Positions 8,102-44,212 of a DNA stretch of 55,597 nt are shown one piece after another. Each line of letters opens with the position of its first letter. Positions within the stretch are counted from its first letter, which is position 1. The DNA comes from a virus (Duplodnaviria; Caudoviricetes): the IMG/VR virus record IMGVR_UViG_3300014838_000025, positions 1-55,597 of that record; one strand, written 5' to 3'. The translations under genes were made by a program, and so were the position numbers. The notes beneath the pieces were generated by a model, which was not told the origin of the DNA, made no database searches, and saw nothing but the letters and a program-made list of their open reading frames with translations.

Positions 8102-8110
8102 CTCGCCTCC

Positions 8111-8127
8111 AGTCCAAATTTTGGACT
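8111..8127. repeat. 17-bp palindrome AGTCCAAAWTTTGGACT (copy 1)
   Basis: agtccaaattttggact, between a stop codon and the next SD. Confidence 0.85.
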
Positions 8128-9058
8128 AAAAAAATGCTCCGCTGGCCGGACTTCCGACTATCGGACTTCCCCCGCCGCCGCTCTGCGCTACCTGCCCACC
8201 ACTCGCCGTGACCACCACGACCGCAACAATCTGGAAACCGTCAAGATTTGCGTTTAACCGATTTTGAGGCGTGTCTGACAAGTACGGGCCAAGCAGAGAA
8301 ACGTAGTTCTGACGCTTCTTTACTCCGTAGTACCAAACCCCGTTGACCTGCACATACCCGCCAGCCCCGCTGACCGTTCCTAGAGGCGCTTGATACTCCA
8401 GAACCGCCCCTCCAGAAGACGATGACGTAAGCTGATACGGCCCGTTGAACCCGGCTGGATTTACTCCGAAGATGGTCCCTATATTCCCTGCAACCAATCC
8501 CGAGGCCGCGCAGTTCACGGTCACAAGATTGTTGACTGCCGCGATTGTAACGATTGCGTACTGAGCCGGGAAACTAAGGATGTCGATCCTGCCACTCAAC
8601 TGAACCGTGCTTCCGTCTGCAAACGTGAGGATGCTTGCCGGAGTCGACACGGTTACAGATGAACCACCGTTTGTCAGGATTGGGATGATCTGGTTTGCGT
8701 TCGGAACCGTGGAAGGAACGTCATTCAAAAAACTGCTCGACTGTTCCCGCTGGCCGTTGTGATTCAGTATCCGGTAGCCAGCCATTGCGTTCGCGCTCCC
8801 CGGCTTCAACTGCTCTTTCAAAACCGGAGCCGAGTAATTCTTCGCGGCCTCGCCCGAAGATAGAGCGTCTGTCACTTCTACCGGAGCGCCGACATTCGTA
8901 ATCCGGTTTCCCCCGAGGTCAATATGGTTGGCAACTTTTATTGGCCCTGAGTACCCGAGAAGAGAATTTACCCGATCAATCAGGGACGAATAGTGCTGGT
9001 TGAATACCGGATCAAGCCCGGAGAAGTCTAGCTTGGCGATCTGGTTCGGAACTGACAT
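8126..9058 (-). CDS. Putative virion structural protein (310 aa)
   Basis: Beta-rich G/S/V/T composition, located among tail genes. Confidence 0.55.
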   Translation of the reverse strand: MSVPNQIAKLDFSGLDPVFNQHYSSLIDRVNSLLGYSGPIKVANHIDLGGNRITNVGAPVEVTDALSSGEAAKNYSAPVLKEQLKPGSANAMAGYRILNHNGQREQSSSFLNDVPSTVPNANQIIPILTNGGSSVTVSTPASILTFADGSTVQLSGRIDILSFPAQYAIVTIAAVNNLVTVNCAASGLVAGNIGTIFGVNPAGFNGPYQLTSSSSGGAVLEYQAPLGTVSGAGGYVQVNGVWYYGVKKRQNYVSLLGPYLSDTPQNRLNANLDGFQIVAVVVVTASGGQVAQSGGGGSPIVGSPASGAFF

Positions 9059-9061
9059 GGG

Positions 9062-9250
9062 CTAATTGTACATCATGTTGGCATAATCCATGAAATCCAA
9101 AATTTGGACTGCTTTCAACTGGTCAAAAAACGAATGATAGCAGCGGAAACAAGCCGAATGATCTTTGTCCCGGCGTGGATGGTGATTCTTCCTACTCTGA
9201 AAAACTGGACGATGCTGCCCGCATTCCGAACAAAGCCATGCACGACACAT
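9062..9250 (-). CDS. Small Cys-rich (Zn-ribbon-like) hypothetical protein
   Basis: CSEC...CFRC pairs; abuts the next gene. Confidence 0.4.
   Translation of the reverse strand: MCRAWLCSECGQHRPVFQSRKNHHPRRDKDHSACFRCYHSFFDQLKAVQILDFMDYANMMYN
9094..9110. repeat. 17-bp palindrome (copy 2)
   Basis: aatccaaaatttggact. Confidence 0.8.
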
Positions 9251-9291
9251 AAGAGCCTCGCATCATAGCTAACATCGTAGCACTAAAAGAG

Positions 9292-9365
9292 TGGAGCGGG
9301 AGACGAGATTTGCACTCGCGCCAAGAGGATGGAAGCCTCTTATGCTGCTTTTACACTACTCCCGC
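9292..9365 (-). tRNA. tRNA-Gly(UCC)
   Basis: Cloverleaf; AGAGG-CUUCCAU-CCUCU; U73 and encoded CCA. Confidence 0.9.
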
Positions 9366-9371
9366 AAACTT

Positions 9372-9447
9372 TGGTCGCTCAGGTTGGCCTCGAACCAACT
9401 ACCTCGCCCTTATCGGGAGCGGGCTCTTCCTGTTGAGCTACTGAGCG
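9372..9447 (-). tRNA. tRNA-Ile(GAU), C33
   Basis: CGCUC-CCGAUAA-GGGCG; CCA. Confidence 0.9.
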
Positions 9448-9506
9448 TCTTGTGATGTGCGTCCTTATCCTATGGCAGTTCGCACATAACAAATCTCCAT
9501 ATGTTG

Positions 9507-9582
9507 TGGTGCGGAAGGAGGGACTCGAACCCCCGAGTGTCTGGGTGTAGACCAGATGCCTTAGCCGCTTGGCGACTTCCGC
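9507..9582 (-). tRNA. tRNA-Val(UAC), C33
   Basis: UCUGG-UCUACAC-CCAGA; A73; CCA. Confidence 0.8.
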
Positions 9583-9583
9583 A

Positions 9584-9661
9584 TGGAGCAGCCGACTGGA
9601 CTCGAACCAGCCTCAATCCATCTACTCTTACCGGATTCGGAATCCGGGGAGATACGGCTGC
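9584..9661 (-). tRNA. Atypical tRNA-Arg(CCG)-like RNA lacking a D-arm, with a long extra region
   Basis: Acceptor GCAGCCG/CGGCUGC, T-arm GCUGG-UUCGAGU-CCAGU, arm CCGGA-UUCCGAA-UCCGG; only 7 nt between acceptor and anticodon arm; CCA. Confidence 0.7.
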
Positions 9662-9668
9662 AAAACTT

Positions 9669-9745
9669 TGGAGCGACCTGTCGGACTCAAACCGACATAC
9701 TCTTCGTTAGGACCGAAGTTCTCTATTCAATTGAGATAAGGCCGC
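9669..9745 (-). tRNA. tRNA-Arg(CCU)
   Basis: CUUCG-GUCCUAA-CGAAG; CCA. Confidence 0.88.
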
Positions 9746-9750
9746 AAAAC

Positions 9751-9825
9751 TGGAGAGCCTACTGGGAATTCAACCCAGATTCATTGCTTAGAAGGCAAGC
9801 GCCCTATGCGTTGGACGATAGGCTC
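9751..9825 (-). tRNA. tRNA-Arg(UCU)
   Basis: UUGC-CUUCUAA-GCAA; CCA. Confidence 0.88.
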
Positions 9826-9826
9826 T

Positions 9827-9901
9827 TGGTGGGTCGCCGGGGAATCCAACCCCGTCCCGGCTCCTTAAAAGGGAGTGATGCAAGCATTACACCTGCGACC
9901 C
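9827..9901 (-). tRNA. tRNA-Lys(UUU)
   Basis: CUCC-CUUUUAA-GGAG; CCA. Confidence 0.88.
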
Positions 9902-9906
9902 CAAAA

Positions 9907-9982
9907 TGGTGAGAGCGGTGGGCAACGATCCCACAGCCTTCCGGGTAAGGGCCGGGTGCTCCGCCGATTGAGCTACGCTCTC
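9907..9982 (-). tRNA. tRNA-Lys(CUU), C33
   Basis: CCGG-CCCUUAC-CCGG; CCA. Confidence 0.85.
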
Positions 9983-9983
9983 A

Positions 9984-10060
9984 TGGTTGCTCTGACTGGA
10001 TTTGAACCAGTGATCTGACGATTATGAGCCGTCTGCTTTAAGCCTCTAAGCTACAGAGCA
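9984..10060 (-). tRNA. tRNA(CAU): elongator Met or Ile2
   Basis: GACGG-CUCAUAA-UCGUC; paired 1:72; CCA. Confidence 0.88.
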
Positions 10061-10070
10061 ATAAACTTTA

Positions 10071-10144
10071 TGGCAGGGACACTCGGACTTGAACCGAGAA
10101 AAACGGTTTTGGAGACCGCTGGTTTGCATTGAGCCTATGTCCCT
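10071..10144 (-). tRNA. tRNA-Trp(CCA)
   Basis: GCGGU-CUCCAAA-ACCGU; G73; CCA. Confidence 0.9.
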
Positions 10145-10160
10145 ACATTTCTCAAAGACC

Positions 10161-10189
10161 AAACAAAACTCCCGGCCTGAGCCGAGAGT
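10161..10189 (-). terminator. Attenuator terminator preceding tRNA block 3
   Basis: ACUCUCGGC-UCAG-GCCGGGAGU followed by UUUGUUU; 5' arm can instead pair with GAGGGUCUGAGUG (10209-10221). Confidence 0.75.
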
Positions 10190-10219
10190 CTGGGTGAAAC
10201 CAAAACTACACTCAGACCC

Positions 10220-10294
10220 TCAAGACACGACTCCCCGCCCCATCCACTTAATCCCGATGGTTATGGTTCTGACGTGTTTGACGGTCTGAGTCAT
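10220..10294 (-). CDS. Leader peptide 3 (24 aa, MTQTVKHVRTITIGIKWMGRGVVS)
   Basis: Short ORF with AGGA SD, ending at the antiterminator; codons match block-3 tRNAs. Confidence 0.75.
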   Translation of the reverse strand: MTQTVKHVRTITIGIKWMGRGVVS

Positions 10295-10333
10295 TGCCTG
10301 TTCCTGCTGTTGAGCACCCTTCGTAGTAAAGAC

Positions 10334-10362
10334 AGCCTACATCACTTCTCGGAATCCTGCAA
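10334..10362 (-). promoter_or_regulatory. sigma70-like promoter for tRNA block 3
   Basis: TTGCAG-17 bp-TAGGCT. Confidence 0.55.
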
Positions 10363-11691
10363 GCGTTCATATTCGACAATGTAATCAACGCACGCTTCGC
10401 TCCAGCCGTCAAGGTGTACCCATGCCTTGTAGCCGATGCCGTTCTGGTAGCTGGCTACGTTGATGAAGTACCCCTTCTTGTCCTTTCCGGGGCCACTGAT
10501 CGACGTGTGCGACTGCTCATCGGTAATGACAATGCAACGGTCGTATCCTTCCTTCGTTGCCACTGCCAAGGCCGCTGCGGTGTCCGTGCCGCCTCTGTGC
10601 TTCGAGGACGTGATTGCATCCCTCAAAGCAAACCCGCGTCGAGGCGGAATCAAGCCTGCCGTTGAGCCGAATACAACGATCTGTACTTCCTCGCAGACCT
10701 CGCGCAAAAGCATTGCCAGAGCACACGCCGCATCCACTCTCCGCAACTCCGACTTGCCGGAAATCTTATCCGACATCGAACCTGAGTTGTCTACTACCAG
10801 AACCGTCTTTCCAGCCAACTTCTCATGGCCTTCCAGACACTTGAACATCGCCTGCTCAAGTTCCGGTTCCAGCGTTGGAGCATACCGCGCAGCCGTGATG
10901 AACCGAAAAGGCAATACCCGATCAGTCTTCATGGCTCTCAGACCCTTACGTATAGCTTCCACGTCCACTCCGGCCTGCTGCATATTGCGAAGGTTCCGCA
11001 GCAATGCCAGAGCACCCAACTTCTCTTCCGCCAGCAACCGCGTGAACGTCTCTTTCTTGTCGGCCCCGCCGCTCAACTGCACTTCCCATGTATCCGGCGA
11101 TTCCAACGTCTTGTCGGCCAGTTTCTTCCACACTGCGGCCTGCTCTTGATCCTTCGGCTTTGCATGGACAAGGAACAACACATCCCGCAACTTCACTGCC
11201 GCCGAGTCAGCGTTCCACTTTGCCAGAGCGTATGCGTCGAACTTCTGGAACGCAGCCGCGAGTCCCTTCTTCATCTGCGCCGTGAGAGACTGCTTCTTCT
11301 CTTTCCAGTACAGCGAGATCAACTCACCCATTTCGTCCGGCCTCTGAACGACTTCGAAGATCGCACCTGAAACCACAGCACGAGTCTGCTTTGTTGCCGC
11401 CCGAATCAGAGCGACTAACAGCACCAAAGGAACATGGCGAAGTTTGAACTTCGTTCTTGCTTCGACTGCAATGTTCGCCACGGTTTCCGCGCCGTCTTTT
11501 TGCTTCAGAATCTCTGCGGTCGTACCCTGAATCCGCTTGGCAATGGATTCTCCATCCTCGTAGAACTCGTCTTCCCACAAGAGGCAAGACATGACGCTCC
11601 GACGAAGCTGCTCAACCGGGTTTGCAAAGACGGCCACTGCCCCTTCATGCGTGTAAAGCAAAACTTTCTTTTCTTTTGTATTGGTTTTCAC
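10342..11691 (-). CDS. rsr: Ro60/Rsr-like TROVE + vWA RNA-binding protein (449 aa)
   Basis: TROVE motifs (FYEDG, LRDVLFLVHAKP, TWEVQLS, ALLRNLRN, VLPFRF) and vWA MIDAS DNSGSM...GGTD...ITDEQ; GTG start 11691 after AAGGAGG. Confidence 0.93.
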   Translation of the reverse strand: MKTNTKEKKVLLYTHEGAVAVFANPVEQLRRSVMSCLLWEDEFYEDGESIAKRIQGTTAEILKQKDGAETVANIAVEARTKFKLRHVPLVLLVALIRAATKQTRAVVSGAIFEVVQRPDEMGELISLYWKEKKQSLTAQMKKGLAAAFQKFDAYALAKWNADSAAVKLRDVLFLVHAKPKDQEQAAVWKKLADKTLESPDTWEVQLSGGADKKETFTRLLAEEKLGALALLRNLRNMQQAGVDVEAIRKGLRAMKTDRVLPFRFITAARYAPTLEPELEQAMFKCLEGHEKLAGKTVLVVDNSGSMSDKISGKSELRRVDAACALAMLLREVCEEVQIVVFGSTAGLIPPRRGFALRDAITSSKHRGGTDTAAALAVATKEGYDRCIVITDEQSHTSISGPGKDKKGYFINVASYQNGIGYKAWVHLDGWSEACVDYIVEYERLQDSEK

Positions 11692-11710
11692 ACTACCCTC
11701 CTTACAACAG

Positions 11711-11734
11711 AAAAGCCCCGCGTCAGCGAGGCTC
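11711..11734 (-). terminator. Terminator-like hairpin between the Y-RNA array and rsr
   Basis: GAGCCUCGC-UGAC-GCGGGGCUU then UUCUGUU. Confidence 0.6.
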
Positions 11735-11741
11735 TCATTTA

Positions 11742-11871
11742 TTCGGGGGAACAAACGGCACAGGAACGTAAGCGTTTTACCGTTAAACTACGTCATCCGA
11801 AGATGCCGGAGAGATTCGAACTCTCAACACTCGCTCCAAAGGCGAAGTACCTGTTACCTACGCCACCCGAA
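11742..11871 (-). ncRNA. Y RNA, YrlA-like, with permuted tRNA domain
   Basis: Terminal stem UUCGGG/CCCGAA, GUGGCG...UACUUC...UGUUCC scaffold; T-arm GAGAG-UUCGAAU-CUCUC, loop-closed acceptor stem, D-arm; adjacent to rsr. Confidence 0.85.
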
Positions 11872-11878
11872 CATCTAA

Positions 11879-11962
11879 GAGCCGAGAACATGTGCAGCCG
11901 GAGGTTTATCTGGAGCCAGTGTTTTGGCGGCTCTGAAGTATCCGACTACGGCACTACGGCTC
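11879..11962 (-). ncRNA. Y-RNA-like RNA (non-tRNA apical domain)
   Basis: GAGCCG/CGGCUC stem, GUAGUG...UACUUC...UGUUCU scaffold. Confidence 0.75.
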
Positions 11963-11971
11963 ACAACTAAA

Positions 11972-12077
11972 GGCCGAGAACATTTGTAACGATTTTGCCC
12001 TACCAACTAGGGCGTCTCTTGATTGCTCAGGAGACTGGAATCGAACCAGTGATGAAATCGTTACTACCACTACGGCT
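11972..12077 (-). ncRNA. Y RNA, YrlA-like, with T-arm/acceptor/D-arm domain
   Basis: AGCCG/CGGCC stem, GUAGUG...UGUUCU; ACUGG-UUCGAUU-CCAGU and GCCC-UAGUUGGUA-GGGC. Confidence 0.82.
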
Positions 12078-12088
12078 CAAACTTTAGT

Positions 12089-12171
12089 CTCCGGGGAACT
12101 CTCGACTTCGGGTATCCCTTTCGGGATTCGGTTTAAGCAATCGAAGTACCCGCCGTCTTTCACCACCGGAG
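12089..12171 (-). ncRNA. Y-RNA-like RNA
   Basis: CUCCGG/CCGGAG stem, GUGGUG...UACUUC...AGUUCC; UCCC-GAAA-GGGA hairpin. Confidence 0.75.
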
Positions 12172-12178
12172 CAATCTA

Positions 12179-12249
12179 TGTCGAGAGAACAAGCGCCACA
12201 GTGTTTTTTCTATTGGAGAGAGAAGTAACTGTGACTTCACTACTCGACA
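12179..12249 (-). ncRNA. Y-RNA-like RNA (minimal)
   Basis: UGUCGAG/CUCGACA stem, GUAGUG...UACUUC...UGUUCU. Confidence 0.75.
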
Positions 12250-12254
12250 ACCTC

Positions 12255-12283
12255 ATTACAGCATGTTGGCAAATTCCTGTCAA
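12255..12283 (-). promoter_or_regulatory. sigma70-like promoter of the Y-RNA/rsr unit
   Basis: TTGACA-17 bp-TGTAAT with TGn extension, 5 nt before the first Y RNA. Confidence 0.75.
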
Positions 12284-12302
12284 GCATCCTGCAAAATAAT
12301 TG

Positions 12303-12377
12303 TGGTCACCCTGGAAGAAATCGAATCCTCGTCTCGACGTTCGTAGCGTCGTGTTCTATCCGTTGAACTACAGGGTG
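12303..12377 (-). tRNA. tRNA-Arg(ACG)
   Basis: CGACG-CUACGAA-CGUCG; CCA. Confidence 0.92.
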
Positions 12378-12382
12378 AAAGA

Positions 12383-12410
12383 TGGTCGGGGTGGTGAGAA
12401 TCGAACTCAC
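12383..12410 (-). pseudogene. 3' part (T-arm, acceptor strand, CCA) of interrupted tRNA-Pro(UGG)
   Basis: GUGAG-UUCGAUU-CUCAC-CACCCCG-ACCA; CACCCCG pairs with CGGGGUG at 12932-12938. Confidence 0.75.
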
Positions 12411-12416
12411 TCGACG

Positions 12417-12764
12417 TTAGAACAGATCATGTTCTATTCTATGGCAATTGGCACATAGAATCTCACACTTCCCAATCTCCTCCAGTATCCTCTCTCTAGT
12501 CCATCCATCGCGTAAAGCGTTGGCAATAGCAAGAACCTTGGACTCCTTATCTTTATGATGGAAGTCAAGAGCGGCTGGATGGTTGAATCCACATCTCGCG
12601 CACTTCATTTCTGATTTCAACTCTCGAAGCCAAATCCGTTTAGATACCCTACGCCGAGCAAGCCTAATAACAGATTCCTTGTTGTATTGAGACTTGTTTT
12701 TCTCGTACCAAGTTCTCCATGCGGCGTTCTTTTGATCTTGCCTTTCTCGCTCTGTCCTTCTCAT
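12417..12764 (-). CDS. HNH endonuclease (115 aa)
   Basis: CARC...LDFHH...CEILCANCHRIEH; TATAAT 7 nt before ATG. Confidence 0.85.
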   Translation of the reverse strand: MRRTERERQDQKNAAWRTWYEKNKSQYNKESVIRLARRRVSKRIWLRELKSEMKCARCGFNHPAALDFHHKDKESKVLAIANALRDGWTRERILEEIGKCEILCANCHRIEHDLF

Positions 12765-12811
12765 GAAACCGATTATACGTCTTGGGATCACTGAATAGTA
12801 TCCTAAAATAT

Positions 12812-12886
12812 TGGTCGGGGCACCGGGAGTCCAACCCGATCCACATGCTCCCAAGGCACGGATGCTGTGCGTCACACTCTACCCCG
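12812..12886 (-). tRNA. tRNA-Pro(UGG), intact diverged copy
   Basis: CGUGC-CUUGGGA-GCAUG; C1:G72, A73; CCA. Confidence 0.85.
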
Positions 12887-12896
12887 ATATTTAAGT

Positions 12897-12938
12897 CATG
12901 ATCCCAAATCATGCGGCCAGCCTTTAGCCCACACCCCG
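12897..12938 (-). pseudogene. 5' part (acceptor strand, D-arm, anticodon arm) of interrupted tRNA-Pro(UGG)
   Basis: CGGGGUG...CAUGA-UUUGGGA-UCAUG with no T-arm following. Confidence 0.75.
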
Positions 12939-12939
12939 A

Positions 12940-13014
12940 TGGTGGTCTGTGGAGCACTCGAAGCTCCCTCTCCGCGTCTTCAGCGCGGCGCTACGCCATC
13001 TCAGCTAACAGACC
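12940..13014 (-). tRNA. tRNA-Phe(GAA)
   Basis: CCGCG-CUGAAGA-CGCGG; CCA. Confidence 0.9.
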
Positions 13015-13020
13015 AAACTT

Positions 13021-13095
13021 TGGTGGACGTGGCCGGGTACGATCCGGCGACCCTAGTTTGCAAGACTAGAATGTTCCCATCTACACTACACGCCC
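13021..13095 (-). tRNA. tRNA-Ala(UGC)
   Basis: CUAGU-CUUGCAA-ACUAG; G3:U70; CCA. Confidence 0.92.
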
Positions 13096-13115
13096 ATTAA
13101 CTTGTCAAAGAACTT

Positions 13116-13190
13116 TGGGGTAGGTAACGGGAATCAAACCCGTGTGTCGAGGGCCACGACCTCGCGTCCTGTCACTGAACGATACCCACC
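13116..13190 (-). tRNA. tRNA-His(GUG), C33
   Basis: CGAGG-UCGUGGC-CCUCG; G-1:C73; CCA. Confidence 0.9.
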
Positions 13191-13198
13191 ATAAAATC

Positions 13199-13264
13199 AT
13201 TAGGCTAGGGTCGGCCTTTTAACACCCTATTTCAAATCCAACATTGGGCCTTGGATCACCTAAT
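13199..13264 (-). ncRNA. Unidentified three-way-junction RNA
   Basis: AUUAGG/CCUAAU enclosing AUCCAA/UUGGAU and UAGGGU/ACCCUA hairpins. Confidence 0.45.
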
Positions 13265-13265
13265 C

Positions 13266-13340
13266 TGGAGCACCCGGACGGATTCAAACCGTCTTCCCCT
13301 CGCTTACAAGGCGAGACATCATCAGCAATGCTTCAGGTGC
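13266..13340 (-). tRNA. tRNA-Thr(UGU)
   Basis: CUCGC-CUUGUAA-GCGAG; CCA. Confidence 0.88.
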
Positions 13341-13881
13341 CTACAAACGTAAACCTCTTGTCACCTTCGGAATCGACGTACAAAAATCGACTCCACTCTT
13401 GAACGCCCATTCCGATACTCCGCAGCATGAACCTGCTCGTGTGTACGCTGCTTGGAAGTGGCCGACGAATCAAAGGCATTCCTGCTTCCTCTGGCGTCTG
13501 GTCGTCCTTCCTCTGATTACAGTCTTTGCAAGCCGCCGTCAGATTCTCCCAAGTGCTCCTCCCGCCTTGCGCCTTCGGGATGATGTGATCCAGCGTCAGA
13601 TGCTCTCCTGAAAACTTGTGACCACAGTAATTGCAGTGATACCCGTCTCTCACGTAAATGTTCTTCCGAGTAACAATCTGCATCCGAACCGGGACGTGAC
13701 GATAAACCCGCAAGCGAATCACGCTTGGCAAGTACACGCCCGGATAAATCATCCTGTCCGTTGCTACCTCTACTACGGCCTTGCCCTTCGTGAGCAACGT
13801 GAGAGCTTTACGGACAGTAACTATCCTTATGGCTTCGTAGCTGGCGTTAAGCAACAGCGTCGGAGTCCGCATTAAGTTCAT
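13333..13881 (-). CDS. HNH endonuclease, McrA-like (182 aa)
   Basis: LLLNASYE...RDGYHCNYCG...LTLDHIIPKAQGGRSTWENLTAACKDCN; SD GAAAGGA. Confidence 0.9.
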   Translation of the reverse strand: MNLMRTPTLLLNASYEAIRIVTVRKALTLLTKGKAVVEVATDRMIYPGVYLPSVIRLRVYRHVPVRMQIVTRKNIYVRDGYHCNYCGHKFSGEHLTLDHIIPKAQGGRSTWENLTAACKDCNQRKDDQTPEEAGMPLIRRPLPSSVHTSRFMLRSIGMGVQEWSRFLYVDSEGDKRFTFVGT

Positions 13882-13896
13882 CACGTCAATCCTTTC

Positions 13897-13972
13897 TGGA
13901 GCTACCGGGGTTACTCGAAAACCCAACCTGTCGCTTACGAGACGACCGCTCTACCACTTGAGCTACGGCAGC
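13897..13972 (-). tRNA. tRNA-Thr(CGU)
   Basis: GUCGU-CUCGUAA-GCGAC; CCA. Confidence 0.92.
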
Positions 13973-13979
13973 ACATCTT

Positions 13980-14054
13980 TGGAGCGGGTTAAGGGAATCG
14001 AACCCTCGTATCGGCCTTGGCAAAGCCGCACTCTACCAACTGAGTTAAACCCGC
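13980..14054 (-). tRNA. tRNA-Gly(GCC)
   Basis: CGGCU-UUGCCAA-GGCCG; U73; CCA. Confidence 0.92.
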
Positions 14055-14060
14055 AAAACT

Positions 14061-14136
14061 TGGCAGGGACGCTCAGAGTCGAACTGAGATAAAACCCGAT
14101 CCAAAGTCGGGTGCCTGACCGCTCGGCCACGTCCCT
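14061..14136 (-). tRNA. tRNA-Gln(UUG)
   Basis: CCCGA-CUUUGGA-UCGGG; CCA. Confidence 0.88.
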
Positions 14137-14143
14137 ACAATTA

Positions 14144-14218
14144 TGGCTCCCCGCGAGAGATTTGAACTCCCATAATGACCTTCAGAGGGTCACGTCCTGC
14201 CAATTGAACGAACGGGGA
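14144..14218 (-). tRNA. tRNA-Gln(CUG)
   Basis: UGACC-CUCUGAA-GGUCA; U1:A72; CCA. Confidence 0.9.
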
Positions 14219-14225
14219 ACATAAA

Positions 14226-14312
14226 TGGCTCAGGCGGCAGGACTCTAACCTGCATTCCCTTGCGGGCACTTCGGTTAACAGCCGAGGCCGATAACATTCC
14301 GGACACACCTGA
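14226..14312 (-). tRNA. tRNA-Asn(GUU) with long variable arm
   Basis: UCGG-CUGUUAA-CCGA; V-arm CCC-GCAA-GGG; U1:A72, G73; CCA. Confidence 0.8.
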
Positions 14313-14324
14313 ATAATCATTTGT

Positions 14325-14367
14325 AAAAGATCAAAGCCTCCAAGCCCTTGTTCCGGCTTGGAGGCTT
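14325..14367 (-). terminator. Attenuator terminator preceding tRNA block 2
   Basis: AAGCCUCCAAGCC/GGCUUGGAGGCUU 13-bp stem then UGAUCUUUU; competing strand GGCUUGGACUCAGU at 14403-14416. Confidence 0.8.
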
Positions 14368-14400
14368 CTCAGTTTTTCCGCTCATCTGCGGGAAAAAATC

Positions 14401-14481
14401 TTACTGAGTCCAAGCCAACACACAATTACCTTGCGGCTGCGCCGTTGGGGTAAATCCGCGATGTGTGGCTCGTGTTCTCAT
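14401..14481 (-). CDS. Leader peptide 2 (26 aa, MRTRATHRGFTPTAQPQGNCVLAWTQ), leaderless
   Basis: ATG 6 nt after the -10 box; codons match all block-2 tRNAs; last codons form the antiterminator strand. Confidence 0.8.
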   Translation of the reverse strand: MRTRATHRGFTPTAQPQGNCVLAWTQ

Positions 14482-14487
14482 GTAAGC

Positions 14488-14516
14488 AACTTACCTGAAT
14501 TCTCTTTACCTGTCAA
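14488..14516 (-). promoter_or_regulatory. sigma70-like promoter for tRNA block 2
   Basis: TTGACA-17 bp-TAAGTT. Confidence 0.75.
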
Positions 14517-14784
14517 ACACTTTCCCAATATTTATTATTCCTGCTCTAAGTCGAGCATACCCATCTGGGTGAATAAGACCACATCCAAGATTACCAAGCA
14601 GGTACATATCTCCGGTAGCGTCCACTTCGTGCCAGTTATGTTTTTCTTTCCGCCACTTCTTCTGAATCCGAACTCGCTTGGATCGTGGAAACCTAAACTG
14701 TTCATTGCGGGTCTTAGGCATAAACGGATCGGCCATGACCTTAATGCCACTAAAGGTGCCGGACAACATATTCGGAAAGTCCAT
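14506..14784 (-). CDS. Hypothetical protein (92 aa)
   Basis: ATG 14784 after GAGAGG; basic motif RFPRSKRVRIQKKWRK. Confidence 0.55.
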   Translation of the reverse strand: MDFPNMLSGTFSGIKVMADPFMPKTRNEQFRFPRSKRVRIQKKWRKEKHNWHEVDATGDMYLLGNLGCGLIHPDGYARLRAGIINIGKVFDR

Positions 14785-14801
14785 TTTCCCTCTCGTAACC
14801 T

Positions 14802-14879
14802 TGGCGTTCCTGATCGGATTTGAACCGATGTTCCCGCGCTGAGAACGCAGTTGCCTAAGCCGGACTAGCAGACAGGAAC
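14802..14879 (-). tRNA. tRNA-Glu(CUC)
   Basis: CUGCG-UUCUCAG-CGCGG; CCA. Confidence 0.88.
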
Positions 14880-14883
14880 GCAA

Positions 14884-14961
14884 TGGTAGGGTAGATGAGA
14901 ATTGAACTCATATTGTCCTGAGTGAAAGTCAGGGTTCCTATTCCATTTAGAAGACTACCCC
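14884..14961 (-). tRNA. tRNA-Glu(UUC)
   Basis: CCUGA-CUUUCAC-UCAGG; CCA. Confidence 0.9.
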
Positions 14962-14967
14962 AAAACT

Positions 14968-15077
14968 TTTTGCAGTGAGCAGGTTTTGTGTCCCTGCCTT
15001 AGAGCGTAAGTAGGTGTTTCACCATCCCCCGCGTAGCTTGCTTTCGCATTCTCAGCCGTAAGACCGTCACTGCAAAA
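14968..15077 (-). ncRNA. Unidentified ~110-nt multi-hairpin RNA within the tRNA array
   Basis: 11-bp closing stem UUUUGCAGUGA/UCACUGCAAAA; hairpins UGC-GAAA-GCA, GGUG-AAA-CACC, GCAGG/CCUGC. Confidence 0.55.
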
Positions 15078-15079
15078 CT

Positions 15080-15155
15080 TGGCGAGGATGAGGAGATTCA
15101 AACTCCCGACTTCCAGCGTGACAAGCTGGCGCTTTTTCAACTAAGCTACATCCCC
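15080..15155 (-). tRNA. tRNA-Asp(GUC)
   Basis: CCAGC-UUGUCAC-GCUGG; G73; CCA. Confidence 0.92.
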
Positions 15156-15160
15156 AAAAT

Positions 15161-15237
15161 TGGTTGCTAGGGTGGAAGTCTAATCCACTGATTTTCGACT
15201 TATGAGGCCGACGAGCCAACGTTGCTCCATCCCAGCT
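15161..15237 (-). tRNA. tRNA-Met(CAU), initiator-like
   Basis: UCGGC-CUCAUAA-GUCGA; A1:A72 mismatch and GAGC/GCUC D-stem; the three G:C anticodon-stem pairs are incomplete. Confidence 0.78.
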
Positions 15238-15265
15238 ACAAAGCATATTACCGATACTTCTAAAA

Positions 15266-15356
15266 TGGTGCAAGTGGGAGAATTCGAATCTCCAGCGTTC
15301 CCGTAAGGAATCTAGTTTTACAGACTAGCGCAGCCAACCGTATCTGCCTCACTTGC
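15266..15356 (-). tRNA. tRNA-Tyr(GUA)
   Basis: CUAGU-CUGUAAA-ACUAG; long V-arm; CCA. Confidence 0.9.
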
Positions 15357-15797
15357 GTGTCGCCTTCTACTCCGTGCTTCACTGCGGCATAGTCGGCATT
15401 CCGTTTGAACTCCACGTCTCTTTGTCCGATCCTTCGTGAACTCAGAAACTAATGCAAAATGCTCCCCTTCACAACACCATGCCATGCCCGGAGGATCAAT
15501 TATTCGCAAATGAGCATTCACATCCATCTTCCGAAGGTCTTCCTTCGTTTTCTCTAAATGACATAATGAACATAACACTTGGGTCTTGGAAAGTTCTTCG
15601 TCTCTACGAACCTTCGACCATGACCATATAGCATGAGTTTCTTTTGTCAGTGGATCAATATGGTCGAGTTCTAAATTTTTTCTTGATCCACATCGAACAC
15701 ATTGCTTTCCTCGAAAATAAGATTCCCTCCGCTCGGCAATCCACTTTCTCTGGTAAGCCCTCATGTACTCCCGTCTTGACTGATAAGTTGAAGACAT
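15318..15797 (-). CDS. HNH endonuclease (159 aa); 3' end overlaps tRNA-Tyr
   Basis: CVRCGSRKNLELDHIDP...QVLCSLCHLEKT plus a C-terminal Cys cluster; TGnTATACT 6 nt before ATG. Confidence 0.88.
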   Translation of the reverse strand: MSSTYQSRREYMRAYQRKWIAERRESYFRGKQCVRCGSRKNLELDHIDPLTKETHAIWSWSKVRRDEELSKTQVLCSLCHLEKTKEDLRKMDVNAHLRIIDPPGMAWCCEGEHFALVSEFTKDRTKRRGVQTECRLCRSEARSRRRHASEADTVGCASL

Positions 15798-15821
15798 GGC
15801 GGAAGTATATCACATGAACAC

Positions 15822-15909
15822 TGGCGGAGACGGAGTGAGTCCAACACTCAAGTCCTTTCGGCACGTCCGGGTTCAAACCGGGTGGGCTTTGCACATGCCC
15901 AACGTCTCC
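15822..15909 (-). tRNA. tRNA-Ser(UGA)
   Basis: CCGG-UUUGAAC-CCGG; V-arm; G73; CCA. Confidence 0.88.
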
Positions 15910-15913
15910 AAAC

Positions 15914-16003
15914 TGGCGGAAGAGGAGAGGAACGATCTCTCAGTACCTTTTGGTACGTCCGATTTCGAATCGGGTGGGCTTGCCAGCCTTGCCCAACTCT
16001 TCC
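15914..16003 (-). tRNA. tRNA-Ser(CGA)
   Basis: CCGA-UUCGAAA-UCGG; V-arm; CCA. Confidence 0.88.
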
Positions 16004-16004
16004 G

Positions 16005-16093
16005 TGGCGGAAGTGGACGGGTACGATCCGTCATGTCCCTTTCGGGTACGCCTGCTTTCCAGACAGGTGAGCCACCAATTGCTCAACACTTCC
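16005..16093 (-). tRNA. tRNA-Ser(GGA)
   Basis: CCUGU-CUGGAAA-GCAGG; V-arm; CCA. Confidence 0.9.
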
Positions 16094-16098
16094 ATAAA

Positions 16099-16188
16099 TG
16101 GCGGAGACGGCTGGGTACGATCCAGCAATACCATTTAAGGTACTCTCGCTTAGCGGGCGAGTGCAATTTCCATTTCTGCCACGTCTCC
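16099..16188 (-). tRNA. tRNA-Ser(GCU), C33
   Basis: CUCGC-CCGCUAA-GCGAG; V-arm; CCA. Confidence 0.88.
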
Positions 16189-16193
16189 AAACT

Positions 16194-16272
16194 TGGTGCC
16201 GATGCCCGGACTCGAACCGGGAAGCCGCTCGTTTTGAGTGAGCGAGGTATACCAAGTTCCCTTCACATCGGC
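16194..16272 (-). tRNA. tRNA-Leu(CAA), short variable loop
   Basis: GCUCA-CUCAAAA-CGAGC; A73; CCA. Confidence 0.85.
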
Positions 16273-16292
16273 ATAATCATTTTTCAAAGAAC

Positions 16293-16368
16293 TGGTAGGG
16301 GCGGAAGGACTCGAACCCTCAAAGACTGGGCCTAGGCCAGCCGTGTTTGCCACTTACACCACGCCCCC
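16293..16368 (-). tRNA. tRNA-Leu(UAG), C33, short variable loop
   Basis: GCUGG-CCUAGGC-CCAGU; CCA. Confidence 0.85.
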
Positions 16369-16373
16369 AAACT

Positions 16374-16448
16374 TGGAGCAGCGGGCGAGAATCGAACTCG
16401 CCAATAACAGTTTTGCAGACTGTCCGCTAACCGATTGCGTTTCCGTGC
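16374..16448 (-). tRNA. tRNA-Cys(GCA), bulged acceptor stem
   Basis: ACAGU-CUGCAAA-ACUGU; U73; 5' strand GCACGG versus 3' strand CCGCUGC. Confidence 0.82.
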
Positions 16449-16451
16449 TCA

Positions 16452-16528
16452 TGGTGCGGGTGAAGGGCATCGAACCCCTAGAACCGGGATTTTAAGTCCC
16501 AGATGTCTACCAGTTGCATCACACCCGC
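16452..16528 (-). tRNA. tRNA-Leu(UAA), short variable loop
   Basis: UGGGA-CUUAAAA-UCCCG; A73; CCA. Confidence 0.88.
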
Positions 16529-16530
16529 AC

Positions 16531-16556
16531 AATAAAAATGCCTCCACTCGGGAGGC
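16531..16556 (-). terminator. Attenuator terminator preceding tRNA block 1
   Basis: GCCUCC-CGAGU-GGAGGC then AUUUUUAUU; competing strand GGGAGGCGUUCGUC at 16587-16600. Confidence 0.8.
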
Positions 16557-16567
16557 TCCGTCAGGAC

Positions 16568-16584
16568 AGTCCAAATTTTGGACT
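16568..16584. repeat. 17-bp palindrome (copy 3, inside attenuator 1)
   Basis: agtccaaattttggact. Confidence 0.85.
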
Positions 16585-16649
16585 CAGACGAACGCCTCCC
16601 TGCCCGATGACAGGCTATACAAATCGGAACTGAGGCATAAGGTCTTCAT
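16584..16649 (-). CDS. Leader peptide 1 (21 aa, MKTLCLSSDLYSLSSGREAFV; in-frame GTG at 16652 is an alternative start)
   Basis: Starts at or near the predicted +1; codons match block-1 tRNAs; last codons form the antiterminator strand. Confidence 0.8.
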   Translation of the reverse strand: MKTLCLSSDLYSLSSGREAFV

Positions 16650-16659
16650 CACGAAACCA

Positions 16660-16688
16660 ACTATCTCACGGCTTAGGCCGAGTGTCAA
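16660..16688 (-). promoter_or_regulatory. sigma70-like promoter for tRNA block 1
   Basis: TTGACA-17 bp-GATAGT with TGn extension. Confidence 0.7.
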
Positions 16689-19600
16689 CTATCCATTCGG
16701 CATGAAAGCCATTTTCGCATATCCCTTGCCGACCACCTGCGGTTTGGTTTCAATACAACTTTCGTCACCCCAAATCTGGAAGTCCGTGGGCGAGGTTGCA
16801 ATGAAGCGAATCATCTTGAACGATACCGCTGGCAAGCGAACTCTCTGCTGGCTGCGAACCCCGGCGCTGTTCGGCAACGTGAAGGTGAAGAACGCTGTGG
16901 ATGACCCATCATAGTAAACATTTACCGTTATCACGCCGGTACTCGTAAACTCCCAGAAGCTATCCTTCGCAATACTGTTAGAGTCCTGTGAAAGCCGCAG
17001 CCAAAAACTGTCCATCACCTTCCGCGTTTTTGCCAGAGGCAGGGCTTTCAAACCAATCTGGTACACATACACGGCTGCGGACACGTTCCCAGTTATCAAA
17101 ACTGAAACTTTGTAATACTCAAAGCCATTTCCAGCATTCAAAGAGAAGTTAACCTTCTCGCGGATTACGGTATTTACGTTGCCAATCAACTGCGTTACTT
17201 GCCCATCCTCGAACATGAGAGAGACTGACACGTTCTGCCCATTCGTGTTTATATCGAGCGTCAGTTCTTGGAAACTTTTAGTCGATGCCGGATTCCCGAA
17301 ATCTGTGTACAAGGTTTGCAGGTTCATCGTGATCGGAACTTGTGTAAGAGAGCCTGATGTATTCCCCTCATCGTAGAACTGATCCTGCCTGTCGATGTGA
17401 ACCAGACCGTTCGAGTCGCCATAAAGCAGACTGTTTGTGTCAACTTCGAGAAATAATGATTGTGCATCAACGTCATCATTGCGCCAGCGTTTGTAATGCG
17501 TGTGCAAGCAGAGACGATGCCGCGCTTCGTCTGTTCCGATGTAGCTCACGTAGACCAGAGTGTTCCAGTACGCGATCCGGGTTTGCGAGAGTTTCGTCTG
17601 ATCGGACTCGACAATCGGACTTGAGCCTACCCCTTGGAAGATGAACTCCAAATCCTGCGTCAAGTACATTGACGCTCCGCCTGCGAAGAAACGTACACCG
17701 TCAATCGCTTGGTAGAACACTCCCTCTTCCGTGACAACCCATCCTAACGGAGCGATGCAGCCGTGCTTAGATGCGGTCGGATAGATTGTCGGACTTGCAT
17801 TTGCGTTGCTCCCCGGCGCTACTGAGAACCATCCTCCCTTCAAGGTTGAGACATAAAGATTACCCTTGATCGCAGCAATTACCGTAATAGGATCGTCAGC
17901 CGTGGTCACAGCTACATACGCCGCTGAACTCACGGCTTGAGGATAGTTTGACGCACTCCAGTACAAACTGTTCGGATTATTCGGATCACCCGCAAACCAG
18001 AACTGCCCGTAGGCTTGCGCCATGATCGTCACTGGTTGACCGTAATTTGCCGTGGCCGAAACCGTTTCCCCTACGGCATGGGTGTTCTGTACAAAGGCCG
18101 TGAAGTAGTTCGAGCCAAGCGAGAGCACAATCACTGTTTCAAAATTGTTGGCAATGGACCCGATCACCCCAATCGAGACTTGCTGCCGCAGAGAGATGCT
18201 TGCCATGCTTGTCGGATAGACGTTCACAACCTGATTCGTCGTCGCTATCCCCGTACTCAAATACGTGTTGACAGGGTTCTGCAACGTGCTCGTCACCGGA
18301 ACATCGTTGGTAAAAGAGATGATGTCGCTCTGCTGGATGTCAACGTCCGTTGACGTGTCCAGATACGTCTGCGGGCTTCCGGTAATCAGAACCTCGTCCA
18401 GCTTGCGGTAGTTGTCGCCTAGCGTTCCCCCTCGGCGGTAGATTCTCAGGCTCGTGGTCTGAGGATCAACCGTTGGAAATGTCATCGTCAGTTGAACTGG
18501 TTGCCGCCTTGGATACACCCAATTCGTATCGAGTGAAGGATTCACATTCGACATCACCATGCAGGGGTTTGACTCGGTTCCATCCACGTTGTTGTAGAAC
18601 GTGAACAGATAATCGTAGGCCACTCCCGCAAACGTGTCCGGCCCTGAGCCTCCAAATAAAATCAGCGAAGCTATATCGACCGTGACTGACGTGTTGTTGT
18701 TCATCACAATCGTTATCTGGTATCCGTTTACAGCACTCCAGTTGAACACAGGATCGTTAAAATCCGCACGGCCTGAGCCAGCAAAATCCGACAACTGCAA
18801 AAGCAGTGGAGTCCACGTATTCAACCCTGTATTCAATTCGGCAATACTGCTTGGACTGCTTACGGTTGTTGAACTTCCGTAGATTCCTAAAGACTCGTAA
18901 AGCAACGCATCTGTCGCGGCTGTCGTCGCCTCTGTGGTGTTGCTGCTTGCCGTGTCGAGAAGATTTTGCAGCGGCCCCTGAGCAATCACCTTGTAAAAAT
19001 AGTCCGAGTTGAAGGTTCCATCCCCACAATCAAACTTGAGAGTGATCGACTGAATCTGCGATGGATCGAATGCAGGCGTAGTCCCTGACGGAGCACCCAG
19101 CCACAAGCCGATGTAGTCCTCCATATTCAGAGTCGTCGGCCATCCGGCTATCGGAAACCCTACAAACGAATTTGTAATCGTTGCCGTGGTCGATGGAGCA
19201 ATGACCGCCTGATTTCCACGAAGTTGAACATTTTGTCCGATAATATGTGTTTTCGTGAAGTTGGCAATAAAGCCTGTCTCTGTCACCCCTAGAACCAAAA
19301 CATACTCAGCATTTGTCGAAACGAATCCGACCGCTAGATATTGGAACAATCCAATCGCTTGCGGATTTGCAACTGACACAGCCTGAATACCCGGAACCGT
19401 AACAGCCGAAGTGAGCGTTGTGCCAACTAGAATGTTGTTTGGATTGAACGTCGTCACGCCTGAAGTCGTGTAGGTAGAACTTACGTAGTAATCCAGAACA
19501 ATCAGATCGGGATTAAGAGCCTCAGCCGCCACAGGGTATTGCGGTTGGAAGATTCCCATCTGCTGCGGTGCTGCTAGAGTTCCGTTGTCCTTTTTCATGC

Positions 19601-44182: not shown

Positions 44183-44192
44183 GTTCCCTCCG

Positions 44193-44209
44193 AGTCCAAA
44201 ATTTGGACT
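44193..44209. repeat. 17-bp palindrome (copy 6)
   Basis: agtccaaaatttggact between a stop codon and the next SD. Confidence 0.85.
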
Positions 44210-44212
44210 GAC

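Follow-up and report, generated by a model that had tools for sequence, protein, structure and literature searches.

Short open reading frames with codons matched to the downstream tRNA genes form putative attenuators in a three-block phage tRNA array

The window, which is the whole stretch of DNA analysed here (55,597 nucleotides, nt), is a 55.6 kilobase (kb) piece of the uncultivated virus record IMGVR_UViG_3300014838_000025 and carries an array of transfer RNA (tRNA) genes in three blocks. Each block is preceded by a leader (L1, L2 and L3 for blocks 1, 2 and 3), which comprises a small open reading frame (ORF), a strand at the end of the ORF that is complementary to the 5´ arm of a terminator, and the intrinsic terminator itself. 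The ORF of each leader is built largely from codons for the amino acids of the tRNAs in its own block. This anatomy, its conservation among relatives, the codon match and the complementarity between the stop-region strand and the terminator arm were all observed in the sequences. Comparison of the sequences suggests that each leader is probably a ribosome-mediated transcription attenuator of the trp/his/thr type that controls tRNA genes, which would form a mobile backup set.

The same three-block array is present in seven further uncultivated phage genomes, giving eight with the window, of about 90-134 kb. A large tail-like protein led to the relative G001, the capsid protein to G003, G004 and G005, and the L3 motif to G012, G013 and G014; three leaders from each of these genomes and from the window make up the 24 phage leaders compared below. 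All eight genomes share the same tRNA order and have a short ORF and a terminator directly before the Leu, Asn and Trp tRNA genes. The short ORF, the stop-proximal antiterminator strand, the terminator and the own-block codons are kept in 24/24 phage leaders and in 11 leaders of bacterial elements. The first-pass annotation of this DNA had proposed one upstream order for every block, namely promoter, ORF, antiterminator strand and terminator; the last three elements were found at all three blocks of the window, and the promoter was found at L1 and L2 and not at L3. The L2 promoter was missed by a consensus scan and was picked up in a later inspection of the regions upstream of the leaders. The TTGACA element of L1 occurs at the same place in G001, G003, G004, G012 and G013, and a TTGACA-like -35 element with a 17-18 nt spacer was observed in 16 of 27 leaders. 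In nine of these 16 leaders, 6-7 nt separate the end of the -10 element from the start codon, implying leaderless messenger RNAs, including that of L2 of the window. Other leaders, among them L3 of the window, lack a promoter of their own, carry an AGGA-type ribosome-binding site and would be read from upstream. The terminators of the window are located 11-22 nt ahead of the first tRNA of their block, and a stem-loop with a T tract is found 4-44 nt before the first tRNA in 23/24 phage leaders. A cmscan search of positions 8800-17200 with E values up to 1 gave no match to a T-box or to a His, Thr, Trp or Leu leader; its sole leader match was ylbH (E 0.59), which lies inside an ORF.

The leaders in the window call for the amino acids of their own blocks to an unusual degree. 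Own-block residues account for 13 of 20 positions in the L1 peptide, 21 of 25 in L2 and 16 of 23 in L3, and the codons touch 12/13, 11/11 and 9/10 of the anticodons of blocks 1, 2 and 3, respectively. The longest runs of own-block residues (12, 18 and 11 in L1, L2 and L3) were tested against the 1056 short ORFs of the window, taken from both strands with all start codons. No other ORF reaches the runs of L1 and L3, and the L2 run is exceeded by one low-complexity Pro/Gly-rich ORF alone. In 24/24 phage leaders, amino acids of the own block are more frequent than those of either other block. Coverage of own-block anticodons ranges from 7/9 to 13/13 and is complete in 13 leaders, whereas coverage of the anticodons of other blocks ranges from 0/9 to 6/11. 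For single leaders, the null probability lies between 0/20000 and 1085/20000 for coverage and between 0/20000 and 425/20000 for residue count, and the match that had been claimed between codons and blocks is well beyond chance. The signal depends on the reading frame: own-block residues make up a fraction of 0.74 in frame versus 0.37 and 0.38 in the other two frames, with the in-frame value higher in 24/24 leaders, and no stops occur in frame versus 22 and 17 in the other frames. Homologous arrays thus keep both the frame and the codon match. The leaders are homologous, mean pairwise identity of their peptides is 0.41-0.50, and the core remains within the residue set of the block. Retention of the residue class in a drifted peptide is the pattern expected if selection acts on the tRNAs called for and not on the peptide.

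These data bear on an alternative in which the leaders are general translational-stress sensors. Such sensors would respond to any slowing of the ribosome, as caused by antibiotics, ribosome damage or a global shortage of tRNA or elongation factors, in the manner of the erm and cat leaders and of the tRNA array of Anabaena, with codon content of little weight. Ribosome-targeting antibiotics of any class induce the Anabaena array, known as the L-array (PMC8421152), and in our folding model any stall 5´ of the stop-proximal strand frees the antiterminator, whatever the codon. Three compositions in one genome would nevertheless be left unexplained by a general sensor, as would an own-block match in 24/24 leaders with near-full anticodon coverage and a residue class kept under peptide drift. 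We regard this alternative as unlikely.

A shift of tRNA genes between blocks provides a natural experiment for the codon match expected of attenuators. Block 3 of G004 has taken over the Asp and Glu tRNAs of block 1, and the Glu tRNAs have made this shift in G014. Asp and Glu codons have been lost from the L1 ORF of G004 and one of each has been gained by its L3, and L3 of G014 has two Glu codons. An Asp codon is present in L3 in the one genome with Asp in block 3 (G004; 1/1) versus 0/7 genomes without it, and GAA is present in L3 in both genomes with Glu in block 3 (G004 and G014; 2/2) versus 1/6 of the others. The tracking of the shifted tRNAs by leader codons is suggestive only, because G004 and G014 may share one ancestral event.

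The leaders also have the alternative pairings that attenuation would require. The leader regions of the window fold better than shuffled sequence (z = -4.4, -4.5 and -3.4). Each leader contains, over or next to its stop codon, a strand with complementarity to the 5´ arm of the terminator of that leader. Across 15 leaders, the mean energy of the cognate duplex is -17.3 kcal/mol versus -13.6 kcal/mol (standard deviation 0.77) for permuted pairings, and 0/20000 permutations reach the cognate value. The pairing strands vary by genome yet remain complementary (GGGAGGC/GCCTCC; AGGGGGCTTTCG/CGAAGCCCCC; GGCGGGGG/CTCCCGCC), and the antiterminator strand of L2 in the window is a repeat of the first eight bases of the 3´ arm of its terminator. 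All 11 distinct L3 sequences have a 1:2 / 2:3 / 3:4 layout with the stop codon in region 2 and a pairing of regions 1 and 2 at -17 to -31 kcal/mol, a pairing that is not evident for L1 and L2. In L3, the stop region (CGTGT..TGAGGGTCTG) pairs either with the first codons (CAGACC..CAAACACG) or with the terminator arm, and a bacterial copy of L3 (L192) has matching compensatory changes in all three strands. The pairing of regions 1 and 2 explains the Gln and Thr codons at the start of L3, which lie outside the set of its block. For L1 of the window, the untranslated RNA folds into the antiterminated form. When the 3´ arm of the terminator was omitted from the folded RNA, the 5´ arm was sequestered with a probability of 0.68 with the ribosome stalled on own-block codons versus 0.47 with the ribosome at the stop codon. 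The stalled value is the higher one in 20/24 leaders (Wilcoxon 3e-5, a value that is not a true probability since the leaders are related).

The whole arrangement might alternatively not be regulatory, the promoter, ORF and terminator being small transcription units or insulators, with untranslated ORFs and tRNAs that are expressed from other promoters. Promoter- and terminator-like sites over the whole region are no commoner than in shuffled sequence (7 versus 6.8 and 13 versus 9.0, respectively), L3 of the window has no promoter of its own, and the RNA-library material consists of contigs that carry no expression signal, all of which would suit this explanation. Contigs from four runs cover parts of the region; they are unable to reveal transcript ends, strand or read-through, and their gaps are uninformative. 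The evidence for the leaders lies in the positions of the sites and their conservation and not in their number. A non-regulatory origin would need the coincidence of a frame-specific codon signal, ORFs that stay open at 41-50% mean identity, a terminator between promoter and tRNA, and complementarity between the stop region and the terminator arm, which makes it highly improbable.

The array is also found outside phages. The L3 motif matched six assemblies labelled Acidobacteriaceae or Terracidiphilus (6 of 36 stretches, the other matches being chance), which contain the same blocks with near-identical leaders (11 leaders). A search of five of these six assemblies did not detect the capsid gene of the phage. 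On a 1.15 megabase contig (G015), a host tRNA-Glu gene is followed by a tyrosine integrase, a transposase, blocks 1 and 2, RtcB, L3 with block 3, Hen1, a Pnkp-type kinase-phosphatase, a TrwC relaxase, a DNA methylase and ParB. Judged by its gene content, this array sits on an integrative element with two predicted tRNA-repair systems, and the element is probably mobilisable. The leader was found in 1/301 genomes sampled from that family, a rate in keeping with a sporadic mobile element. The initial description as a phage tRNA array therefore holds for eight phages and is too narrow, since the array is shared with an integrative element of Acidobacteriaceae. In the phages, the slot between blocks 2 and 3 is occupied by RtcB in G003, whereas the window and G004 have a Ro60-like gene there, accompanied by Y-RNA-like stretches. 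The Ro60-like assignment in the window is based on the Pfam TROVE and vWA domains, and that in G004 on C-terminal residues like those of the window only.

These neighbours bear on a further alternative, in which the leaders are amino-acid starvation sensors with the same mechanics, the signal being uncharged tRNA in nutrient-limited peat soil and the extra tRNA serving another purpose. Classical leader-peptide attenuators respond to tRNA charging, and the mechanism is blind to whether a tRNA is uncharged or missing. More tRNA cannot mend a shortage of amino acids, however, so that the match between codons and products would have no feedback value under starvation, and the neighbours are RNA-repair genes (RtcB, Hen1, Pnkp-like and Ro60-like) rather than genes for biosynthesis or transport. 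Starvation as the natural signal is quite improbable. A link to tRNA damage, which had been proposed at first pass with an anticodon nuclease as the trigger, gains support from the neighbours as far as damage is concerned; the nuclease may be the trigger. The repair-gene neighbours together with the Anabaena precedent make tRNA damage the most plausible natural signal.

If the leaders are attenuators, transcription would start at a sigma-70-type promoter, often near enough to the start codon for a leaderless RNA, and a ribosome would translate the ORF of 20-32 codons. A ribosome that reaches the stop codon would cover the stop strand, so that the terminator forms and transcription ends 4-44 nt before the first tRNA. 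With any of the 7-14 tRNA species of the block scarce or uncharged, the ribosome would stall earlier, the stop-proximal strand would pair with the 5´ arm of the terminator, and the block would be transcribed. The new tRNAs would relieve the stall, closing a negative feedback loop. The three leaders would jointly probe nearly the whole codon table, each for the tRNAs that it controls, and the cassette would be carried by a peat/permafrost phage lineage and by integrative elements of Acidobacteriaceae, beside RNA-repair genes. We infer translation of the ORFs, read-through on stalling, block-selective induction, feedback and a natural trigger from this arrangement, and an anti-defence trigger is plausible. 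A wider proposal, which we put forward tentatively, is that the array is a mobile tRNA-insurance cassette. About 35 tRNA species would be gauged by the ribosomes of the cell itself, and a species destroyed by an anticodon nuclease, a ribotoxin or another stress would turn on only its own block, which would go off once the species was restored. The cassette would move between phages and elements with RNA-repair enzymes and might represent the first translation-coupled autoregulation of tRNA genes and a mechanism for silent L-arrays.

Several observations weigh against attenuation in this form. No promoter for L3 was found in the window, where L3 follows the Ro60-like gene, and in L2 of G012 the terminator stem is present with a poor T tract. 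The claim that the ORF codons are those read by the tRNAs of the same block stands at the level of the amino acid and does not stand at the level of the single isoacceptor: tracking of isoacceptors was not seen, TCG, TCC, CTC, CCG and ATA occurring with or without a dedicated tRNA, and the pooled Fisher value of 0.008 in this test rests on non-independent counts and is not relied on. In the window, block 3 tRNAs read the codons AGA and GGA of L2, and L3 contains codons for Thr, Gln and His, which are block 2 amino acids there. Glu codons occur in L1 and L3 of G001, where no Glu tRNA was detected, and Glu codons in L1 are independent of the presence of a Glu tRNA (2/4 versus 2/4). The best antiterminator strand in L2 of G001, G004 and G014 is located 14-25 nt before the stop codon, and the cognate duplex ranks only fifth to eighth of 15 arms for L1 of the window and for L2 and L3 of G001. 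When the complete terminator was included in equilibrium folding, it prevailed at all simulated stall positions in 13/24 leaders, and the model therefore needs the usual co-transcriptional (kinetic) assumption, on which the textbook attenuators rest as well. In the truncated-RNA model, 4/24 leaders go the opposite way. The eight phages and the six bacterial elements share ancestry, and the counts are not independent events. Amino-acid starvation and ribosome-targeting drugs also stall ribosomes, and the sensor alone cannot separate them from the loss of a tRNA. The support for attenuation, good as it is, comes from comparative sequence analysis and computation.

Known leader attenuators control amino-acid operons (trp, his, thr, ilvGMEDA, leu and pheA) and, in the case of pheST, a synthetase; leaders with several amino acids include thr (Thr and Ile) and ilv (Ile, Val and Leu). 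The leaders described here resemble the trp/his type in that regulatory codons are frequent in a short ORF, an intrinsic terminator follows, and the terminator competes with an antiterminator that cannot coexist with it and whose 5´ strand a ribosome at the stop codon can reach, and L3 has the full 1:2 / 2:3 / 3:4 layout. They differ in that their targets are tRNAs and not genes that make or charge the sensed amino acid, and in that each reads a panel of six to nine amino acids through varied synonymous codons, in contrast to runs of one to three amino acids. Many of them are leaderless, three attenuators stand in series, and none matches an Rfam leader family in sequence. The T-box riboswitch likewise ties a leader to the state of a specific tRNA and controls a terminator, upstream of synthetase or amino-acid genes. 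It binds the tRNA directly without a ribosome or an ORF, whereas the leaders here are based on an ORF and a ribosome and gave no T-box match. Leaderless short ORFs with polycysteine act as cysteine-responsive attenuators in mycobacteria (bioRxiv 10.1101/834739). They share with the leaders here a leaderless short ORF whose codon content sets downstream expression via ribosome stalling, and they differ in sensing one amino acid, in having protein-coding targets and in belonging to another phylum.

The closest counterpart in content is the L-array (trn operon) of Anabaena sp. PCC 7120, which was horizontally acquired, is silent and is induced more than 100-fold with rtcB by translational stress (Santamaria-Gomez et al. 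2021, PMC8421152). Both arrays are horizontally transferred and supernumerary, have homing-endonuclease neighbours and are linked with rtcB and hen1-pnkP. The hallmarks of an L-array are found here in about 34 co-oriented tRNA genes, in carriage by eight phage genomes and by the G015 element with its integrase and TrwC relaxase, in HNH genes within the arrays, and in the presence of RtcB, Hen1 and a Pnkp-like gene (G015), RtcB (G003) or a Ro60-like gene (window). The Anabaena array is silent by default and on when translation is impaired (PMC8421152), a behaviour that is proposed for the array here. Differential regulation of tRNA genes was described as largely unknown, and promoter repeats were offered as a first indication (PMC8421152). 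The control suggested for Anabaena consists of one promoter, 9-nt direct repeats and a presumed repressor (PMC8421152), in contrast to the post-initiation control of three blocks by codon-matched ORFs that is proposed here. The words attenuat-, leader and terminator are absent from the tRNA-array papers checked, among them PMC8421152. No account of leader-peptide attenuators before tRNA genes was found in the literature searched, in which older and subscription journals are thinly covered. A possible attenuator before tRNA-Phe genes of E. coli was not borne out at pheV, the upstream region of which has a promoter directly before the tRNA and no leader ORF or terminator. Phage tRNAs have been described as countering tRNA-cleaving immunity in the form of PARIS AriB (PMC12409363) and of retron and Schlafen systems (PMC13462974). 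The common element is a set of spare tRNAs on a mobile element that can replace cleaved host tRNAs, and the accessible parts of the two reports describe no demand-sensing control of phage tRNA genes.

The positions of the leader elements, the tRNA blocks and the inserted genes are collected in Table 1. The long ORFs of the window lie nearly all on the minus strand and include terminase, portal protein and major head protein genes. ARAGORN with default settings detected 29 tRNA genes, all on the minus strand, at 9292-16528. A relaxed threshold added Lys-ttt (9827-9901), Pro-tgg (12812-12886), Asn-gtt (14226-14312) and Met/Ile-cat (15165-15236), giving 33, and Rfam added two tRNA-like stretches at 16376-16450 (anticodon by eye GCA, Cys) and 9587-9662 (by eye CCG, Arg, with an odd fold). 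One of the 33 ARAGORN tRNAs (11799-11868) overlaps a Y-RNA-like match. The count of 34 tRNAs given at first pass is fair in view of these figures, and its division into three blocks was borne out.

Table 1. Leader elements, tRNA blocks and inserted features of the array (window positions; lengths in nt)
Feature	Position	Strand	Description
L1 promoter	16660..16688	-	TTGACA-17 nt-GATAGT; -10 ends 7 nt before in-frame GTG and 10 nt before ATG
Leader ORF 1	16584..16649	-	MKTLCLSSDLYSLSSGREAFV, then stop; 21 codons; 12 consecutive Leu/Cys/Ser/Asp/Tyr codons
L1 antiterminator 5´ strand	16586..16600	-	GGGAGGCGTTCGTCT; spans last ORF codons; pairs with terminator 5´ arm; duplex -19.7 kcal/mol
L1 intrinsic terminator	16530..16556	-	GCCTCCCGAGTGGAGGC and T tract; hairpin 16556-16540
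Block 1 tRNAs	14802..16528	-	Leu(taa), Cys(gca), Leu(tag), Leu(caa), Ser(gct, gga, cga, tga), Tyr, Met/Ile(cat), Asp, Glu(ttc, ctc); ARAGORN, Rfam
ORF within block 1	15318-15797	-	No Pfam match; overlaps start of tRNA-Tyr
L2 promoter	14488..14516	-	TTGACA-17 nt-TAAGTT; -10 ends 6 nt before ATG
Leader ORF 2	14401..14481	-	MRTRATHRGFTPTAQPQGNCVLAWTQ, then stop; 26 codons; 18 consecutive codons for the nine amino acids of block 2
L2 antiterminator 5´ strand	14402..14417	-	TGGCTTGGACTCAGTA; runs into stop codon; duplex -20.3 kcal/mol
L2 intrinsic terminator	14323..14368	-	14-bp stem and T tract; hairpin 14368-14333
Block 2 tRNAs	12303..14312	-	Asn, Gln(ctg, ttg), Gly(gcc), Thr(cgt, tgt), His, Ala, Phe, Pro(tgg), Arg(acg)
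HNH endonuclease gene	13333-13890	-	Pfam; within block 2
Slot between block 2 and L3	10342..12255	-	Y-RNA-like stretches 11744-12255; Ro60-like gene (TROVE, vWA domains) 10342-11691
Leader ORF 3	10220..10294	-	MTQTVKHVRTITIGIKWMGRGVVS, then stop; 24 codons; AGGA at 10302-10305, 7 nt before ATG
L3 region 1	10272-10292	-	5´ part of ORF 3
L3 region 2	10209..10230	-	TCGTGTCTTGAGGGTCTGAGTG; includes stop codon; partner region 1 or terminator 5´ arm; 1:2 -28.9, 2:3 -19.5 kcal/mol
L3 intrinsic terminator	10156..10191	-	Terminator and T tract; hairpin 10191-10166
Block 3 tRNAs	9292..10144	-	Trp, Met, Lys(ctt, ttt), Arg(tct, cct, ccg-like), Val, Ile(gat), Gly(tcc)

Several features within and around the array were observed in addition. 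HNH genes occur at similar positions of the array in relatives and in the bacterial element. Within the tRNA array, the slot between block 2 and L3 seems to be a Ro/Y-RNA module carried by the phage; the Y-RNA-like stretches 5´ of the Ro60-like gene are weak matches to YrlA (30.8 and 27 bits versus a family cut-off of 69), and 11746-12255 is covered by contigs from three RNA libraries. By eye, a tRNA-Pro(tgg) gene is split (window 12383-12938, minus strand), the 5´ half lying near 12938-12895 and the 3´ half near 12415-12383. The insert contains a second, intact tRNA-Pro(tgg) at 12812-12886 and an ORF of 115 amino acids with CxxC/H motifs and no Pfam match, and may be a homing cassette that carries its own copy of the target. 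Arg tRNA-like genes with the anticodons TCT, CCT and CCG by eye lack an ordinary D arm and carry a long additional arm following the anticodon stem. They were observed at window 9587-9662 (minus strand) and in G003 (L165), G005 (L167) and G012 (L177), and they recur at one position in several genomes; ARAGORN does not detect them, and their Rfam scores are low. A tRNA with the anticodon TCA lies directly behind block 2 of G012 (L177, reverse complement of 8509-8579); it would read UGA and could be a suppressor or a sign of recoding. Contigs of the RNA-library runs X15 and X17 skip 307 bases (14494-14800) and have 32 other letters instead. This stretch is an ORF of 93 amino acids between block 1 and L2 that relatives do not have, and the skip points to a strain variant without the ORF. 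Near-copies of the stretch just upstream of and into the L1 terminator are found at 8110-8127 (minus strand, 18/18 bases), at the end of an ORF at 8126-9058, and at 44189-44210 (plus strand, 21/22 bases). The large-subunit terminase ORF (44636-47857, minus strand, 1073 amino acids) matches terminase at both ends and an endonuclease family between them, which points to an intein or to the insertion of a homing endonuclease.

The phage occurs in runs labelled as peat, permafrost and freshwater metagenomes. In GenBank phages, searches with the DNA returned tRNA and Ro60 fragments only, and the best match to the capsid protein has 28.6% identity, indicating that there is no cultured relative. The search with the large tail-like protein returned one relative, in which the array is located elsewhere in the genome. 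Ten capsid-related records, mostly fragments, were checked for tRNAs: three have full arrays, two have one or two tRNAs and five have none. A 14-base L1 pattern matched more than 117 stretches in IMG/VR, and among the matches listed none has a tRNA downstream on the same strand. Two longer patterns found G001 alone, a scan of a single metagenome gave two chance matches, and a further L3 pattern found known genomes only. Caulobacter phage CcrColossus has no tRNA array near its Ro60 gene.

If the leaders act as attenuators, a textbook mechanism would close a direct loop between supply and demand on tRNAs themselves. Such a loop would explain how supernumerary tRNA arrays are carried silently and used only on need. 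It would also provide the phage-side counterpart to tRNA-cleaving defence, which would then extend beyond the supply of tRNAs to the sensing of their loss. The leaders would be small, modular and sequence-defined sensors for groups of codons and might serve as tools.

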